Numbered from the stretch's first letter, positions 1,368 through 64,000 are shown. The stretch: DNA of 64,000 bases from Frigoriflavimonas asaccharolytica (GCF_013294015.1 NZ_JABSNO010000003.1:78746-142745), one strand, 5' to 3'. Numbers and translations: made by a program. The notes: generated by a model not told the origin, from the sequence alone.

Positions 1368-4121
1368 ATGAATAATCTTTTCTATTTGGTACCAATATTT
1401 GGTGTCATTGCTCTTATTTACACTTTTATCCAAAGTGCATGGGTTACCAAACAACCAGACGGCGATAGCCGCATGAAAGAAATTGCTGGCTATATTGCAG
1501 ATGGAGCAATGGCTTTCTTAAAAGCAGAATACAAAGTAATGAGTTACTTTGTTGTAGTAGCTGCTCTATTGTTAGGTGTAATGGGATATGCGGATAAAAA
1601 TAGCCACTGGTCTATTGCATTGGCATTTATCTTTGGTGCATTTTTCAGTGCTTTAGCCGGATTCTTAGGAATGAGGATCGCTACAAAATCCAACGTAAGA
1701 ACTGCAGAAGCTGCAAAAACATCACTTTCAAAAGCATTGAAGGTTTCCTTTACAGGAGGTTCTGTAATGGGAATGGGAGTTGCTGGTTTGGCTGTTTTGG
1801 GTTTAGGTAGTTTGTTTATTATTTTAAAAATGGTATTTGCTCCAGATTCTGCTGTAGACAGCGAAGAAATGAAGCGTGCTATTGAAATCCTGACAGGTTT
1901 TTCTTTGGGTGCAGAATCTATCGCACTTTTTGCAAGAGTAGGAGGTGGAATATACACTAAAGCGGCAGATGTAGGTGCGGATTTAGTAGGAAAAGTAGAA
2001 GCAGGAATACCAGAAGACGATCCAAGAAATCCGGCAACTATTGCAGATAACGTAGGAGATAATGTAGGAGATGTAGCAGGAATGGGAGCAGATTTATTCG
2101 GTTCTTATGTAGCTACCGTTTTAGCAACTATGGTTTTGGGTAGAGAAACTACTGGTATAGATTTAAATCCATTAGTTGATGGATTTGGAGGTTTATCTCC
2201 GATTTTATTGCCGATGCTTATTGCAGGTGTTGGTATCATACTTTCGATAATAGGTACTTTTTTCGTTCGTATCTCGGAAAGTGCAGGATTGAATACTTCG
2301 ACTGTGCAAAATGCATTAAATATGGGGAATTATGGTTCCATTGTATTAACCGCAATTGCATGTTTCTTCTTAGTTACCAATATTTTGCCAGCAGAAATGT
2401 CTTTAAGAGGCTTTAATTTCACTAGTATGGATGTTTTTTATTCCATTTTAGTTGGTTTAGCAGTTGGTACTTTAATGAGCATCATTACAGAATATTATAC
2501 AGCAATGGGGAAAAGACCAGTGCAAAGTATTGTAGATCAATCTTCTACTGGTCATGCAACAAATATTATTGGTGGATTGGCAGTAGGAATGGAATCTACA
2601 TTTTTACCAATTTTGGTTTTAGCAGCGGGAATTTTTGGATCTTACCATTTTGCAGGTTTGTACGGTGTTGCTATTGCAGCAGCCGGAATGATGGCTACAA
2701 CAGCAATGCAATTAGCAATTGATGCTTTTGGTCCAATTGCAGATAATGCAGGTGGAATTGCAGAAATGAGCGAATTGCCTGCAGAAGTTAGAGAAAAAAC
2801 AGATATTCTAGATGCAGTAGGAAATACCACAGCTGCTACAGGAAAAGGATTTGCAATTGCTTCTGCGGCTTTAACGGCTTTAGCATTATTTGCAGCGTTC
2901 GTAGGAATTGCAGGAATTGATGGTATCGATATTTATAGAGCAGATGTACTTGCAGGTTTATTTGTGGGAGCTATGATTCCATTTATATTTTCTTCTTTAG
3001 CTATTCGTGCTGTTGGAGAAGCTGCAATGGCAATGGTAGAAGAAGTTAGAAGACAATTTCGTGAAATTCCAGGAATTTTGGAAGGAACAGGAAAACCGGA
3101 ATATGACAAATGTGTAGCAATATCTACAGAAGCATCTTTGAGAAAAATGATGTTACCTGGTGCAATTGCTATCGTTTCTCCGCTAATTGTTGGTTTCCTT
3201 TTAGGTCCAGAAGTTTTAGGTGGATTTTTAGCAGGAGCTACTGTTTCTGGAGTATTGATGGGTATGTTCCAAAATAATGCTGGTGGAGCTTGGGATAATG
3301 CAAAAAAATCTTTCGAGCAAGGTGTAGATATTAAAGGTGAAAAATTCTACAAAGGATCTGAACCTCACAAAGCATCTGTAACAGGTGATACTGTAGGAGA
3401 TCCTTTCAAAGATACTTCTGGTCCATCTATGAATATTTTAATTAAATTAATGTCTATCGTTTCTTTAGTTATTGCACCTACTTTAGCGGTGATACACGCA
3501 GATCAAATAAAGGAAAATAGAGCAGCGAAATTAAAAGTAATTACATTAGCTCAAATTAAAGCAGACAATCCAAACGGAGAAGCTGCTGTAGATTTGGCCG
3601 CAATTTCTACGATGAAAGGAGCATTGAATGCAGATGGAGATTTCGTGTATGAAACAGGCGAAATGCAAGAAGTTTCTTTAATGAATGGAAAAAAAATCAT
3701 GATAGGAAATAGCAGTTCTATATTTAATATGGTGAAAAGTATTGAAGGAAAAGATGAATCTATTTTAAATAAAGATGTTTGGTTTACCATAGAAAATCTT
3801 TATTTTGATACTGGAAAAAGTACCATTAAAGCAAGTTCTATGGTTGAATTACAGAATATTGCAGAAGTTTTGAAAGCCAACGAAAATTTAAAGATAAAAC
3901 TTGGTGGGTACACAGATAATTCTGGTTCACAAGAAATCAACCAACCACTATCTCTCCAAAGAGCAGAAAGTGCAAAAAAACAATTGACAGCAATGGGAAT
4001 TGCCGCAGACAGAATTGAGGCAGAAGGATACGGAAGTGAATTTCCTGTTTGTGCTGCAAATGATACTCCAGAATGCAAAGCTCAAAACAGAAGAATAGCT
4101 GTGAGAGTTACAGAATTATAG
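1368..4121 (+). CDS. hppA: membrane-bound H+/Na+-translocating pyrophosphatase with C-terminal OmpA-like domain
   Basis: 917 aa, polytopic. Contains [19 protein letters not shown] and DNVGDNVGD signatures of V-type PPase. The last ~110 aa ([11 protein letters not shown]...[27 protein letters not shown]...NRRIAVRV) match an OmpA C-terminal peptidoglycan-binding domain. Confidence 0.85.
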
Positions 4122-58984: not shown

Positions 58985-60107
58985 GAATTTTATAAAATAA
59001 AGTAGCGGCAGTTTCTGTAATTTCGTCTGGAAAATCGTAATCTGGATTATGCAAAGCTGGGCAATCTACTCCAGAACCAATACCAAACATTGCCCCAGAA
59101 ATTTTTTGGGTAAACAATCCAAAATCTTCTCCCCATTTAAAAGGATTTTCTAATTTTTGATGATTTAAATTTAAATTCTCCGCAGATTTTTTAATTATTT
59201 TCACCGCATTTTTATCGTTTTGATTAGAGAAAAACTCTTGTGTCCACGATGTTTTAATTTTTAAAGAATATTTTTCAGCGATTAGATCTAAATAGTTTTG
59301 CAAAATTTCTACACGTTTATCAAACCATTTTGGATCCCAACTTCTAATGGTTAAATGTAATTCTCCACTTCCTGCAGAAATACCATAATCTTTTGTTCCA
59401 AACTCCGAATAAATAGGGGTAATTAAAAAGAATTTGTCTTTTTTTACATCTTTTTCTGTCAATTTTTCGCAAAATTGTAAAATTTCGGAAATCGCTAATG
59501 CGGGATTTTCGCCATGTTCTGGTTCTGCTGCATGTGCTGTTCTGCCGTTTAATTCTATTATTAAACTTCTCACATTTGCGGTAAAAGCTCCAGATTTGTA
59601 TACTATTTTATTAAGTGGAATTCCTGGCAAATTGTGTAAAGCAAAAACCTGATTTATATTCAATTTTTTGAATACTTTATCTGCCATCACAGCTTTCGCG
59701 CCCGTTCCGTTTTCTTCGGCAGGTTGCCAAAGTAAAACTATTTTGCCTTTATTTATTGGTTTCTCTGTCAGCAATTCTGCAACGGCTAATAAAATCGTCG
59801 TATGTCCATCATGTCCACATTTATGAGAAACTTTTGGATCTGTAGATTTGTGCTCAAAATCGTTGGTTTCTGTTATTGGCAATGCATCAATATCTGCACG
59901 AAGCATTATTGTTTTACCTTTTTTTTTACCTTCAAAAGTTGCGATAATGCCAGTTCCCCCTACTTTAGAAATTTTTGCGTCTGTATTTTCTATTAGATAA
60001 TCAAATATTTTCTGGCAAGTTCGGAATTCTTGTGTTGATAATTCAGCAAAATTTTTGTGAAGGTCTTTGCGAATGAGCTCTAAATTTTTGAAAAGTGTTT
60101 TGGACAT
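58968..60107 (-). CDS. M20 family amidohydrolase (N-acyl-amino acid amidohydrolase/hippuricase-like)
   Basis: HKCGHDGH metal-binding motif. 17-bp overlap with the downstream racemase gene. Confidence 0.8.
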   Translation of the reverse strand: MSKTLFKNLELIRKDLHKNFAELSTQEFRTCQKIFDYLIENTDAKISKVGGTGIIATFEGKKKGKTIMLRADIDALPITETNDFEHKSTDPKVSHKCGHDGHTTILLAVAELLTEKPINKGKIVLLWQPAEENGTGAKAVMADKVFKKLNINQVFALHNLPGIPLNKIVYKSGAFTANVRSLIIELNGRTAHAAEPEHGENPALAISEILQFCEKLTEKDVKKDKFFLITPIYSEFGTKDYGISAGSGELHLTIRSWDPKWFDKRVEILQNYLDLIAEKYSLKIKTSWTQEFFSNQNDKNAVKIIKKSAENLNLNHQKLENPFKWGEDFGLFTQKISGAMFGIGSGVDCPALHNPDYDFPDEITETAATLFYKILENAI

Positions 60108-60341: not shown

Positions 60342-61232
60342 TTGGAAAATTCTAAAAAGCATCAAGCCGGATTTGTAAACATAGTAGGGAAACCAAACGC
60401 TGGGAAATCCACCTTGCTCAACAATTTAATGGGCGAAAAATTGGCTATTGTTACGCAAAAGGCACAAACTACAAGACATAGAATTTTCGGAATTTATAAT
60501 GAAGAAGATTTGCAAATTGTATTCTCTGATACTCCTGGAGTGATGGAACCAAAATATGGCTTGCAAGAAAAAATGATGGATTTTGTGAAAGATTCTTTAC
60601 AGGATGCAGATGTATTTCTATTTATTATTGATATTACAGATGAGACGGAAGCGAATGCTTATTTAATTGATAGATTGAATAAAATACCAGTTCCTGTGCT
60701 TATTTTAATAAATAAAATAGATGTTTCTACTCAAGAAAATTTAGAGAAAATAATAGAAGAATGGCATGAGCGGATTCCAAAGGCAGAAATATTGCCGATA
60801 TCCGCAAAAGAAGCCATTAATACTGCATTGATTTTACCGAAATTAAAATCTATGTTGCCAGAAAGTCCACCATATTACGGCAAAGATCAATTGACGGATA
60901 AGCCAGAACGTTTTTTCGTAAACGAAGCTATTCGCGAGAAAATTCTTTTAAATTACGAGAAAGAAATTCCATATTCTGTAGAAGTAGTTACAGAAATATT
61001 CAAAGAAAAAGACAACGCTATTGTGATAGAGGCGGTAATTTACGTAGAAAGAGATTCTCAAAAAGGTATTATCATTGGGCACAAAGGTGAAATGATAAAA
61101 AAAGTAGGTACTGAAGCAAGATTAGATTTAGAGAAATTCTTTGGAAAAAAGATACATTTAAGTCTTTTTGTGAAAGTGAAAAAGGATTGGAGGAAAAATG
61201 ACAGAGATCTAAAGAATTTTGGATACTCTTAG
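60342..61232 (+). CDS. era: GTPase Era
   Basis: G1 GKPNAGKST, G3 DTPG and G4 NKID motifs. C-terminal KH domain. Confidence 0.9.
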   Translation: MENSKKHQAGFVNIVGKPNAGKSTLLNNLMGEKLAIVTQKAQTTRHRIFGIYNEEDLQIVFSDTPGVMEPKYGLQEKMMDFVKDSLQDADVFLFIIDITDETEANAYLIDRLNKIPVPVLILINKIDVSTQENLEKIIEEWHERIPKAEILPISAKEAINTALILPKLKSMLPESPPYYGKDQLTDKPERFFVNEAIREKILLNYEKEIPYSVEVVTEIFKEKDNAIVIEAVIYVERDSQKGIIIGHKGEMIKKVGTEARLDLEKFFGKKIHLSLFVKVKKDWRKNDRDLKNFGYS

Positions 61233-61294
61233 TATTTCCAAAGCTTTTTTTGAATTTAAACCTTTTTACTATTTTTGATTAAAATTACAAACCT

Positions 61295-61723
61295 ATGATT
61301 CAAAGCTCAAAGAAATTTTTTATTTTCTTCCAAAATTCTATTTTGTTAATTGTAAGAATGTTGGTTGGTCTAGCGATGTTGAGTCATGGTTTTCCAAAAT
61401 TGCAGACGCTTATAAATGGAGGGAAAATTGAGTTCTATAATTTTTTAGGATTAAGTTCTACGATTTCATTAGGTCTTACGGTTTTTTCAGAATTTGTTTG
61501 CTCTATCTTTTTAATTCTTGGTTTGTTTTCTAGATATGCTGCTTTTTTTCTAGCATTTACAATGATTATTGCAGCTTTTGTATTTCATGGTGGAGATCCT
61601 TGGGAAAAGCAAGAGATGTCGATTATTTATTTATGCTCTTATTTTTTGTTATTGGCTTTTGGTGCAGGTAAATTTTCTATAGATAGTTTAATTGATAAAA
61701 GAAAAAGCACTAAAATTTATTAG
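61295..61723 (+). CDS. DoxX family membrane protein
   Basis: 142 aa, four TM helices with DoxX-like pattern. Confidence 0.65.
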   Translation: MIQSSKKFFIFFQNSILLIVRMLVGLAMLSHGFPKLQTLINGGKIEFYNFLGLSSTISLGLTVFSEFVCSIFLILGLFSRYAAFFLAFTMIIAAFVFHGGDPWEKQEMSIIYLCSYFLLLAFGAGKFSIDSLIDKRKSTKIY

Positions 61724-61777
61724 TCAAAATCTTCGCATCTCTAAATTATTAGTAACAGTATTTTTAAAAAGATTAGT

Positions 61778-61882
61778 TATAAGTGAATCTACTTATAAAC
61801 TTAAATATAAGTCATTTCGCTTATAATTTGAAATATAAGTGAATTCGCTTATAAAATGAATTATAAGCGATTTTGCTTATAA
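61778..61882. repeat. four tandem 21-bp imperfect palindromes (TATAAG-N8-CTTATAA) at exact 28-bp periodicity
   Basis: Copies start at 61778, 61806, 61834 and 61862. Arms are conserved, the central 8 bp vary. Copy 3 (tataagtgaattcgcttataa) is nearly perfectly palindromic. Confidence 0.65.
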
Positions 61883-61952
61883 TGTTAATAAAATGTACAA
61901 ATGATTTGTTGTAATTGCAATAATGTTTTACTAAAAAAAGTATCTTTGTAGA

Positions 61953-62564
61953 ATGAAAGCCGTGATAACTGCAGACATCATAAATTCTACCAAATCATCA
62001 TCTAATTCTTGGATAGTTGATCTAAAAAAAGCACTAAAAAATTTCGGGAAAGAAGGGAAAGATTGGGAAATTTTTCGTGGTGATGAGTTTCAAATACTTT
62101 TGGACAAGCCAGAATTAGCCTTCATCATATCTGTAATGATAAAAGCATCGCTAAATTCAAACGGAATAGATGCAAAGATGGCGATTGGATTAGGCGAAAT
62201 AAGCTATCATGGTAAAACGATAAAGGAAAGCAACGGCTCTGCATTTATTAATTCTGGTAGAACTTTAGATATATTAAAGGGCGAAAAATATCAAAAACTA
62301 GCCCTAAAAAGTGATATTTCTGGTTTTGACGAGCAATTTAAACTTATCTTTCAACTATTAGAAACTACTTTTGACAACTGGACAGAAAGCTCTGCGAAAG
62401 CCATACTTGCATATCTTCAAAATCAAGAATTAAACCAAATAGAGATTGCAAAAAAGTTGGGAATATCTCAAAGTGCATTCAGCCAATTTCTGAAAAAAAC
62501 GAATGCAGAAGCAATTATTGCTACAGACCAATATTATAGAAAAAAAATAGCTGAAATTTCATGA
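61953..62564 (+). CDS. SatD-like protein with C-terminal helix-turn-helix
   Basis: 203 aa. C-terminal HTH (LNQIEIAKKLGISQSAFSQFLKK). Followed by a DUF3307-like gene whose start overlaps its stop. Confidence 0.5.
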   Translation: MKAVITADIINSTKSSSNSWIVDLKKALKNFGKEGKDWEIFRGDEFQILLDKPELAFIISVMIKASLNSNGIDAKMAIGLGEISYHGKTIKESNGSAFINSGRTLDILKGEKYQKLALKSDISGFDEQFKLIFQLLETTFDNWTESSAKAILAYLQNQELNQIEIAKKLGISQSAFSQFLKKTNAEAIIATDQYYRKKIAEIS

Positions 62565-63259
62565 TATTTTTACTTCTCATATTGGCGCATCTGCTTGGAG
62601 ATTTTATTCTTCAACCAAATTCTTGGGTAGCTGATAAAGAGAAGAAAAAGTTAAAAAGCATTTATTTGTACATTCACGTGTTGATTCATGCTGCACTAAC
62701 AGCTATATTTCTTTGGGATTTACAGCTTTGGTGGATGGTTGCAATTATTGCTATAAGTCATTTTTTGATAGATGCCGCAAAATTATTATATCAAAAAGCA
62801 AATAATAGAAAATTTTGGTTTTTTCTAGATCAGGCGCTTCACATTTTTATAATTTTAGGTTTACTATTTATTTTAAATGGTCTCGATTTTAATTTTGAAA
62901 TCACCCATCAAACTGTGAAAATAATAACAGGTTTTGTATTTATAACAGTTCCTACCTCTATTTTAATAAAAAATTTACTTTCAGCTTGGTCACCAATTAC
63001 TATAGATCATAGCAAAATACAAACAGAATCTCTTGTAAACGCAGGAAAGTATATTGGGATTTTAGAAAGAGTTTTGGTTTTCATATTCATAATCGTCAAT
63101 CATTGGGAAGGAGTTGGATTTATGATTGCCGCAAAATCCGTTTTTAGATTTAGTGATTTGGCAGAGGCAAAACAAAGAAAATTAACAGAATATGTATTAA
63201 TAGGAACATTATTAAGTTTTGGAATCGCAATTTTAACCGCAATGGCAATCAATTATTAG
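62561..63259 (+). CDS. DUF3307-like polytopic membrane protein
   Basis: N-terminal LAHLLGDFILQ motif. Start overlaps the stop of the SatD-like gene. Confidence 0.5.
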   Translation: MIFLLLILAHLLGDFILQPNSWVADKEKKKLKSIYLYIHVLIHAALTAIFLWDLQLWWMVAIIAISHFLIDAAKLLYQKANNRKFWFFLDQALHIFIILGLLFILNGLDFNFEITHQTVKIITGFVFITVPTSILIKNLLSAWSPITIDHSKIQTESLVNAGKYIGILERVLVFIFIIVNHWEGVGFMIAAKSVFRFSDLAEAKQRKLTEYVLIGTLLSFGIAILTAMAINY

Positions 63260-63278
63260 TTTATAAAAATTAAAAAAT

Positions 63279-64000
63279 CATGAGTAACAAAGGAGCCTTA
63301 TTATACGAAGGAAAAGCAAAACAAGTATTTGAAACAGATAAAGCAGATGAAGTAATCGTGAGATTTAAAGATGATGCAACTGCATTTAACGCTCAAAAAA
63401 GAGGGCAAGTAGATCTAAAGGGCGAGATGAATAATGCCATCACAACACTTATCTTTGAGTATTTGAATGCGCAAAATATAGAAACTCATTTCATTTCCAA
63501 AATTTCTGAAAGGGAACAACTGGTAAAAAAAGTAAGCATTATTCCAATAGAAATGGTAGTAAGAAACTATTCTGCAGGAAGCATGGCGCAAAGATTGGGA
63601 ATAGAAGAAGGTATAAAATCTCCAATTACCATTTTTGATCTTTGTTTGAAAGATGATGCTCTTGGAGATCCTTTGATAAATGATTATCACGCAATTTTTC
63701 TAGGAGCTGCAACCAGAGAAGATCTAAGCGAAATGTATGCTTTGACAGAAAAAATAAATAAGATTTTAATACAATTATTTGATGAGATAGGAATTATCTT
63801 GGTTGATTTTAAAATAGAACTTGGCAAAACATCCGATGGCAAAATAATATTAGCAGACGAAATTTCGCCAGATACTTGCAGACTTTGGGACAAAGAAACT
63901 ATGAAAAAGCTAGATAAAGATAGATTCCGAAGAGATTTGGGAGATGTAACGGAGGCTTATGTCGAAATTTACAACAGATTGAAAAATCATTTAAACAAAT
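63279..64000 (+). CDS. purC: phosphoribosylaminoimidazole-succinocarboxamide synthase (partial, continues beyond window)
   Basis: [21 protein letters not shown]-terminus and downstream SAICAR synthetase motifs. No stop in window, so absent from the ORF track. The minus-strand ORFs 63415..63690 and 63687..63893 are spurious. Confidence 0.85.

Follow-up and report, generated by a model that had tools for sequence, protein, structure and literature searches.

Operators made of imperfect palindromes, conserved in their outer arms and variable in a centre that the protein does not contact, are familiar from phages lambda and 434, in which the OR1-3 and OL1-3 sites of cI and Cro are regularly spaced at or over the regulator's own promoter and are bound cooperatively by helix-turn-helix (HTH) dimers. 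The lambdoid operators measure 14-17 bp with a period of about 23-24 bp, and the repressor carries a cI-type C-terminal domain. Positions 1 and 6 of the recognition helix furnish the classic base contacts in the 434 and lambda repressors; in the 434 repressor, these are Gln28 and Gln33. The PucR/CdaR regulators combine a GGDEF-like sensory domain with a following HTH, and to our knowledge the known PucR boxes are not phased palindrome arrays. Plasmid iterons are tandem, phased direct repeats of 17-22 bp that adjoin the gene for a DNA-binding protein, the Rep initiator, at an origin furnished with an AT-rich unwinding region and DnaA boxes. Autoregulated toxin-antitoxin operators are represented by the paired palindromes of yefM-yoeB (PMC1802561) and by the ccdAB operator (PMC5389731).

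We analysed a 64,000-nucleotide stretch of the Frigoriflavimonas asaccharolytica genome (GCF_013294015.1, NZ_JABSNO010000003.1:78746-142745), hereafter the window, in which an array of palindromes precedes a gene pair encoding a SatD-like protein and a DUF3307 membrane protein. As in the lambdoid operators, the units are imperfect palindromes with conserved outer arms and variable centres, and the model that we favour for them likewise invokes regular spacing upstream of the regulator's own gene and cooperative binding of HTH dimers. The dimensions differ, with units of 20 bp, a half-site pitch of 14 bp, and a period of 28-29 bp, as does the regulator, in which a cyclase-like palm domain takes the place of the cI-type domain. 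Unlike the lambdoid operators, the SatD array is chromosomal or plasmid-borne rather than phage-borne, and its promoter is predicted to drive a leaderless mRNA. The architecture of SatD recalls that of PucR/CdaR in placing a palm or GGDEF-like domain ahead of an HTH; relative to these regulators, SatD retains both cyclase metal-binding aspartates, D8 and D44. Relative to iterons, which are likewise tandem phased repeats next to the gene of a DNA-binding protein, the SatD units are dyad-symmetric, promoter-associated, and chromosomal, and no Rep gene accompanies them. The likeness to toxin-antitoxin systems comprises an overlapping two-gene cassette of which the first product would be a DNA-binding autoregulator acting on repeated palindromes, the mobility of that cassette on plasmids, and the status of satD in Streptococcus pyogenes as accessory yet essential (PMC11323703). 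Against this likeness stand a second gene that encodes a polytopic membrane protein, DUF3307, the lack of any detected toxin or antitoxin family, and, in Flavobacteriales, the conserved housekeeping neighbourhood of the pair.

A phased array of palindromes upstream of satD

The window contains four TATAAG-N8-CTTATA units with a period of exactly 28 bp, each followed by an A (Table 1). The sequence itself, Tandem Repeats Finder (TRF), and a motif scan agree on this spacing, which an initial annotation of the window had reported. TRF assigned to positions 61778-61882 a period of 28, 3.8 copies, and a score of 119, making the array the top-scoring repeat of the window; the sole higher row is the same array read with a period of 56 (score 149). 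A search of the 64-kb window for TATAAG-N8-CTTATAA with at most one mismatch returned eight matches, corresponding to the four sites on both strands, all inside the array. Shuffled versions of the window yielded 0.24 +/- 0.62 matches and none of 100 shuffles reached eight. As the scan covered 64 kb of the genome, a wider regulon is possible. In unit 3 (TATAAGTGAATTCGCTTATA), which has a GAATTC core, one T/G mismatch interrupts an otherwise perfect 20-bp palindrome, in keeping with its earlier description as almost perfectly palindromic. A candidate fifth unit at -203 (TAGTAAC...TTAAAA), found with a relaxed filter, was too degenerate to be counted. The array ends 70 bp before the satD ATG, at the distance first estimated, and occupies positions -175 to -72.

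The spacer within each unit and the linker between units are both 8 nt long, so that the array can also be read as eight half-sites that alternate in orientation and recur every 14 bp exactly. Where relatives have a 29-bp period, the spacer within the unit is still 8 and the linker is 9; the fixed inner spacer identifies the convergent TATAAG...CTTATA arrangement as the real unit. A 14-bp half-site pitch combined with a 28-29-bp dimer pitch places successive sites on different faces of the helix, which is unusual for simple side-by-side cooperativity. We considered and rejected a CRISPR array, as had the initial annotation: the period is 28 bp, the units are 20 bp, the linkers are 8 bp, and no cas genes lie nearby.

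Table 1. Positions in the window of the array, with units of the form TATAAG-N8-CTTATA, and of the features around it.
Feature	Position	Strand	Remarks
era	60342..61232		upstream neighbour
DoxX gene	61295..61723		upstream neighbour
Whole array, four imperfect palindromes	61777..61882	none	sequence, TRF, motif scan
Unit 1	61778..61797	none	TATAAGtgaatctaCTTATA; N8 = tgaatcta
Unit 2	61806..61825	none	TATAAGtcatttcgCTTATA; N8 = tcatttcg
Unit 3	61834..61853	none	TATAAGtgaattcgCTTATA; N8 = tgaattcg, GAATTC centre
Unit 4	61862..61881	none	TATAAGcgattttgCTTATA; N8 = cgattttg; promoter-proximal, start at -91 from ATG
58-bp gap, array to -7 box	61883..61940	none	contains palindrome ACAAATGATTTGT and GTAAT/TTTTAC words
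Bacteroidota sigma-A -7 box (TAnnTTTG), predicted	61941..61948	+	TATCTTTG; 4 nt before ATG
SatD-like gene, 203 aa	61953..62564	+	N-terminal cyclase/GGDEF-like palm domain, C-terminal HTH
Predicted recognition-helix codons	62469..62498	+	residues 173-182, QSAFSQFLKK
Q178 codon	62484..62486	+	specificity-correlated position
DUF3307 membrane protein gene	62561..63259	+	ATG overlaps satD stop codon (ATGA)

The SatD-like protein and its gene neighbourhood

The protein encoded downstream of the array scores 29.3 bits against the Pfam SatD model PF16264 (cut-off 29; model positions 4-196 of 211), a borderline assignment. The source annotation is 'SatD family protein', and homologues also carry PF16264; a protein of identical sequence is on record from Frigoriflavimonas asaccharolytica. 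The C-terminal HTH spans residues about 148-185; the AlphaFold2 model (pLDDT 93.4) places helices at residues 162-169 and 173-182, and HTH profile matches align with the recognition helix of the MarR-type AdcR. Residues 1-140 (61953-62370) adopt a predicted palm fold that Foldseek matches, with probability 1.0 and an E-value of about 6e-4, to class III adenylyl cyclases, GGDEF domains, and the Cas10 palm; polymerases and primases are not among the closest structural matches, which are nucleotide cyclases and GGDEF domains. In an alignment with the cyclase 3mr7 that is weak (E-value 0.09), the invariant D8 and R42-G43-D44 fall on its two metal-binding aspartates. Full-length Foldseek searches returned weak matches to BAD_0249 (PDB 3onq; probability 0.8-0.9) with TM-scores of about 0.3, and the protein had no matches to the Pfam models GGDEF_2 and HTH_30. 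A nucleotide ligand or product of the palm domain is plausible from the modelled fold, and the fold together with D8 and D44 suggests a transcription factor that binds or makes a nucleotide. PADLOC detected HTH-level similarity to Csa3/CARF regulators only, with no defence system or toxin/antitoxin family assigned, and no NCBIfam model matched DUF3307. We found no solved structure for the SatD family, and a literature search on the regulation of SatD/DUF3307 returned nothing, the results for 'satD' being swamped by papers on satellite DNA.

In every locus with inspected gene content, DUF3307 lies directly 3' of the satD-like gene. The ATGA overlap of satD stop and DUF3307 start (62561-62564) argues for translational coupling, and the two genes are probably co-transcribed. 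A purC-like gene follows DUF3307 after 21 bp on the same strand and may be co-transcribed with the pair in the clade of the window. The gene order era-doxX-satD-DUF3307-purC-purF is shared with close relatives (65-68% identity), in which array and promoter are likewise apart.

The array is conserved across SatD-like loci

We assembled 160 SatD-like loci from species-representative genomes and metagenomes, with six more added by exact-protein look-up. The underlying scans gave 580 confirmed homologues (of at least 599 pattern matches) in species-representative genomes and 433 in metagenomes; a metagenome scan with a single protein found no match, and the alignment-based scan succeeded. The best 120 homologues listed in a second search, seeded with distant members, were all Bacteroidota- or Chlorobi-like and included no Firmicutes SatD, and a phage collection yielded no SatD-like homologue.

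Once redundant upstream regions had been removed, at least two chained TAT-xxx-N8-xxx-ATA units were present in 151 of 157 loci, and three in 107, in a sample dominated by Chryseobacterium. Conserved arrays number 2-6 units. Adjacent units are spaced by 28 bp in 80 pairs and by 29 bp in 202, together 282 of the 292 pairs. The motif is confined to its place: 415 matches fall within 300 bp upstream of the genes, whereas the other 768 kb that were retrieved contain 6.

Two Chitinophagaceae-like loci, L011 (4336-4383) and L117 (2842-2889), possess a second pair of units, TATCAC-N8-GTGATA, 28 bp apart and of the same class as the 5' array, directly after the DUF3307 stop codon; in L011, this pair lies between the operon and a convergent MFS-type gene. 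These 3' units may serve the 5' array as looping partners or may obstruct convergent transcription.

A predicted leaderless promoter

The -7 box TATCTTTG is the only exact TAnnTTTG match on the + strand of the satD intergenic region. Across the whole window, TAnnTTTG is not enriched (117 matches, 107 expected), and the match by itself would not carry the promoter call, which relies on conserved position: the box lies exactly 4 nt before the conserved ATG in 116 of the 157 non-redundant SatD-like loci. The sigma-A box of Flavobacterium psychrophilum is located at -12 to -5 (PMC9723704), which by the same spacing would place the transcription start at the A of the satD ATG. The satD-DUF3307 mRNA is hence predicted to be leaderless across the family; for the window, the initial annotation had proposed a short or leaderless transcript. 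In F. psychrophilum, only 5.5% of the mRNAs analysed are leaderless (PMC9723704). A sigma-70 promoter scan, which is uninformative for Bacteroidota, gave 5 sites with 4.1 expected.

In 106 of the 157 loci, the proximal unit starts at -28 and covers -28 to -9, overlapping the TAnnTTTG box. Unlike in most homologous loci, no unit overlaps the satD promoter in the window, where the array ends 58 bp before the -7 box; occlusion as inferred for the homologues is therefore not directly transferable. No in-phase or degenerate unit was found across the 58-bp gap. The gap does hold a perfect palindrome, ACAAAT-G-ATTTGT (61897-61909), which is unrelated to the array units and may be the site of another factor, and its GTAAT and TTTTAC words may be relics of a TAC-type operator.

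The close relatives hold further palindromes near the promoter. L163, which encodes a Q178 protein, carries three TATAAG-type units and in addition a TAC-type palindrome, AGTTACTTTTTATAGTAATT, at about -38 (about 408-427). The latter resembles the proximal TAC-type unit, TATTACCTTTTTAAGTAATT at -37, of L001, a relative of the R178 type. This arrangement suggests that a switch in specificity was followed by the gain of a new upstream array and the decay of the old proximal operator. In L161 (65% identity), a perfect 16-bp palindrome, TACGGTAATTACCGTA (2474-2489), overlaps with its last two bases the TATCTTTG -7 box; it is unlike that locus's own TATAAG/TATAAT array units.

Half-site sequence tracks residue 178 in the predicted recognition helix

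The three inner bases of the arms vary by lineage, with both arms changing in step. AAG/CTT half-sites occur in the window, in Chryseobacterium, in Bacteroidales, and in one Chlorobi-like MAG; TAC/GTA half-sites occur in Flavobacterium and in L001 and L002; further lineages possess TAG/CTA, CGY/RCG, CAC/GTG, CGG/CCG, CAT/ATG, or TGT/ACA. When the SatD-like alignment is sorted by half-site class, the change tracks the second HTH helix. Among 47 representatives sharing <80% identity, Q178 is the top mutual-information protein column for each of DNA positions 4, 5, and 6, and shares 1.84 of 1.90 bits of entropy with half-site class; the other columns with high mutual information are simply very variable (at least 3 bits). 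The partition of half-site class by residue 178 is perfect in a set of 49 representatives at the same identity limit: Q178 accompanies (A/T)A(G/T) in 28, R178 accompanies (T/A)AC in 9 from two separate clades, A or E accompanies CGN/CAT in 8, and the remaining pairings are N with CAC (2), L with TGT (1), and I with ATA (1).

The two R178 clades are Flavobacterium (INQAAVSRR) and L001/L002/L162 (ISQGAFSR[AS]). The latter groups, at 52-68% identity, with the Q-bearing clade of the window locus, L161, and L163 (ISQSAFSQ[FS]), and this sister relationship implies at least one switch not tied to deep phylogeny. Shared ancestry is a partial confounder of the covariation; the Q/R switch is the only one seen twice independently.

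In the AlphaFold2 model, residue 178 is position 6 and the invariant Q173 is position 1 of the predicted recognition helix 173-182, making them the equivalents of Gln33 and Gln28, respectively, of the 434 repressor. By analogy, the constant outer TAT would be read by Q173, and the inner bases, which vary, by residue 178. Such a specificity code, with the single residue at helix position 6 following the three inner bases of the half-site, could yield orthogonal repressor/operator pairs for Bacteroidota genetics.

Alternative explanations for the array

The palindromes could act as RNA, either as hairpins of a 5' leader, as an sRNA, or as the 3' end or terminator of doxX. The RNA fold predicted for 61770-61890 is strong (-38.6 kcal/mol, z = -7.5), positions 61845-61870 are called as a terminator-like hairpin with T-run, and doxX lies on the same strand without another obvious terminator. 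A strong fold is automatic for any tandem palindrome, however, and the corresponding DNA fold has z = -6.5. The substitutions in the arms also speak against base-paired RNA: the 204 unique units contain 135 arm mismatches, 101 of which (75%) are non-wobble (A-A, T-T, G-A, and similar), and those of wobble type are without strand bias, with 16 of G·U type and 18 of A·C type (antisense G·U). Within the unit, Y at position 7 is matched by R at position 14, and positions 9-12 are 85-98% A/T; this symmetry and A/T-rich centre are features of a DNA dyad. In most loci, the array lies over or upstream of the -7 box of the leaderless gene and hence outside the satD transcript, the gene upstream of the array differs or is divergent in other lineages, and an Rfam scan of 61000-64000 at permissive E-values returned only noise (mir-590 at 21.6 bits, gathering score 65). 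We regard an RNA role as highly improbable and the array, on these features of its sequence, as a DNA element. An iteron-like element had been offered as an alternative in the initial annotation; in its broader form, the array would be a site of replication, partition, or recombination on which the palm-domain protein acts enzymatically. While the tandem phasing of the repeats, a palm fold common to cyclases and Cas10, and the presence of homologous gene pairs on plasmids agree with such a role, the units are palindromes rather than direct repeats, the locus is chromosomal and syntenic, and there is neither a Rep gene nor a DnaA box within 1.7 kb of the array, the nearest DnaA-like box being at 60033. 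Furthermore, the E. coli plasmid pEC34A that carries the gene pair already possesses a ColE1-type replicon (Rop, MobA), and the affinity of the palm domain to cyclases and GGDEF domains instead of polymerases or primases argues against DNA processing, leaving this alternative only a marginal probability.

Were the units operators of a different, unlinked transcription factor, for example a global regulator, their failure to overlap the satD promoter in the window would be readily accommodated. The divergence of half-sites between lineages is instead typical of a local autoregulator, and an unlinked factor would not account for the perfect partition of half-sites with a residue of the SatD recognition helix. 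The array moves with satD into new genomic contexts and onto plasmids, including one of 3.77 kb that encodes, MobA and Rop aside, no other candidate regulator. We thus consider an unlinked factor very unlikely. Short repeats are frequent in AT-rich intergenic DNA and TRF reports many weak matches elsewhere in the window, which could favour a neutral tandem duplication or a selfish, REP/MITE-like repeat without function. Such repeats would not be expected to hold their position, geometry, and copy number across two phyla and more than 150 species while both arms change coordinately, nor to be restricted to one array locus in the 64-kb window; conservation effectively refutes this reading, to which we assign next to no probability.

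A model for SatD autoregulation

The array most likely constitutes a set of cooperative operators that are read by the SatD-like HTH protein of the adjacent gene. The initial annotation had proposed first of all that a dimeric HTH protein, possibly SatD itself, binds the array as a multi-site operator; the recurrence of the array across the family and the covariation of its half-sites with helix position 6 lend that proposal strong support. In the model, one SatD dimer would occupy each 20-bp palindrome, with Q178 facing the AAG trinucleotide in the window. The A/T-rich centre is probably uncontacted and would tune DNA shape, and dimers on units 28 bp apart would interact cooperatively. In this way, the array would give the leaderless satD-DUF3307 operon a steep switch under the control of its own product. 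The geometry of the proximal unit over the -7 box suggests, for most homologous loci, autorepression by promoter occlusion. For the F. asaccharolytica genome, repression is the somewhat favoured outcome; the more distant array of the window could act from afar by wrapping, spreading, or looping, could be an upstream activator site, or could block read-through from doxX. More speculatively, the palm domain probably has a nucleotide as its ligand or substrate, and this nucleotide would modulate DNA binding. The accessory yet essential status of satD in S. pyogenes would fit a repressor of a harmful partner.

The SatD operator array is apparently undescribed and, mechanistically, a classical autoregulatory switch. 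SatD/DUF3307 pairs are widespread, including on proteobacterial plasmids, and the family, named in streptococci, gains a cis-element and likely autoregulation through a leaderless promoter. The array is a lead for annotation and mechanism and brings no new principle.

Distant relatives on plasmids

Searching plasmids with tblastn revealed SatD-like and DUF3307 pairs at 24-29% identity in Vibrio (conjugative), Salinivibrio, Pseudoalteromonas, Pseudomonas fragi, Sphingomonas, and Segatella. Plasmids of the ColE1 type, 3.77 kb in length, from E. coli and Klebsiella also carry the pair. Half-sites unrelated to those of the window recur there at the same pitch. Vibrio lentus possesses three TTAGCC-N6-GGCTAA sites at 2371, 2399, and 2427 (28 bp), Pseudoalteromonas two GTAAC-N8-GTTAC sites 28 bp apart, and Salinivibrio two upstream units at 28-bp spacing; in Segatella, the words TTGATT and AATCAA are each repeated at 28 bp, and in pEC34A and P. 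fragi, two AACC-N5-GGTT-type sites lie about 29 bp apart. No array was seen upstream of the gene pair of the Sphingomonas plasmid (L173). The 28-29-bp phasing runs deep in the family, and the geometry of the protein presumably dictates it.

The plasmid settings hint at a mobile addiction or defence-like module. We consider it unlikely, though conceivable, that SatD-DUF3307 is such a module, self-contained and horizontally mobile, in which a helical SatD oligomer assembled on the 28-bp-phased operators would silence a harmful DUF3307 and a nucleotide, made or sensed by the palm domain, would derepress it. If so, fixed phasing with free drift of the half-sites would reflect the geometry of a nucleoprotein filament and not pairwise cooperativity.

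The pEC34A plasmid (NC_019077.1; 3,770 bp, mobilizable) carries the SatD-like and DUF3307 genes at 1792-3481; besides rop, mobA, and one small hypothetical ORF, the pair is its only cargo, as it is on the 3.77-kb Klebsiella plasmids. Several proteobacterial copies adjoin integrase, transposase, antitoxin, or Pycsar-effector genes. On the Segatella copri plasmid (L169), the interval that separates a divergent HTH regulator gene from the SatD-like gene contains three GCCATATTTTTCGATTAAG direct repeats, 41 and 31 bp apart (2140-2230). These repeats differ from the TTGATT/AATCAA palindromes, which are closer to the SatD start.
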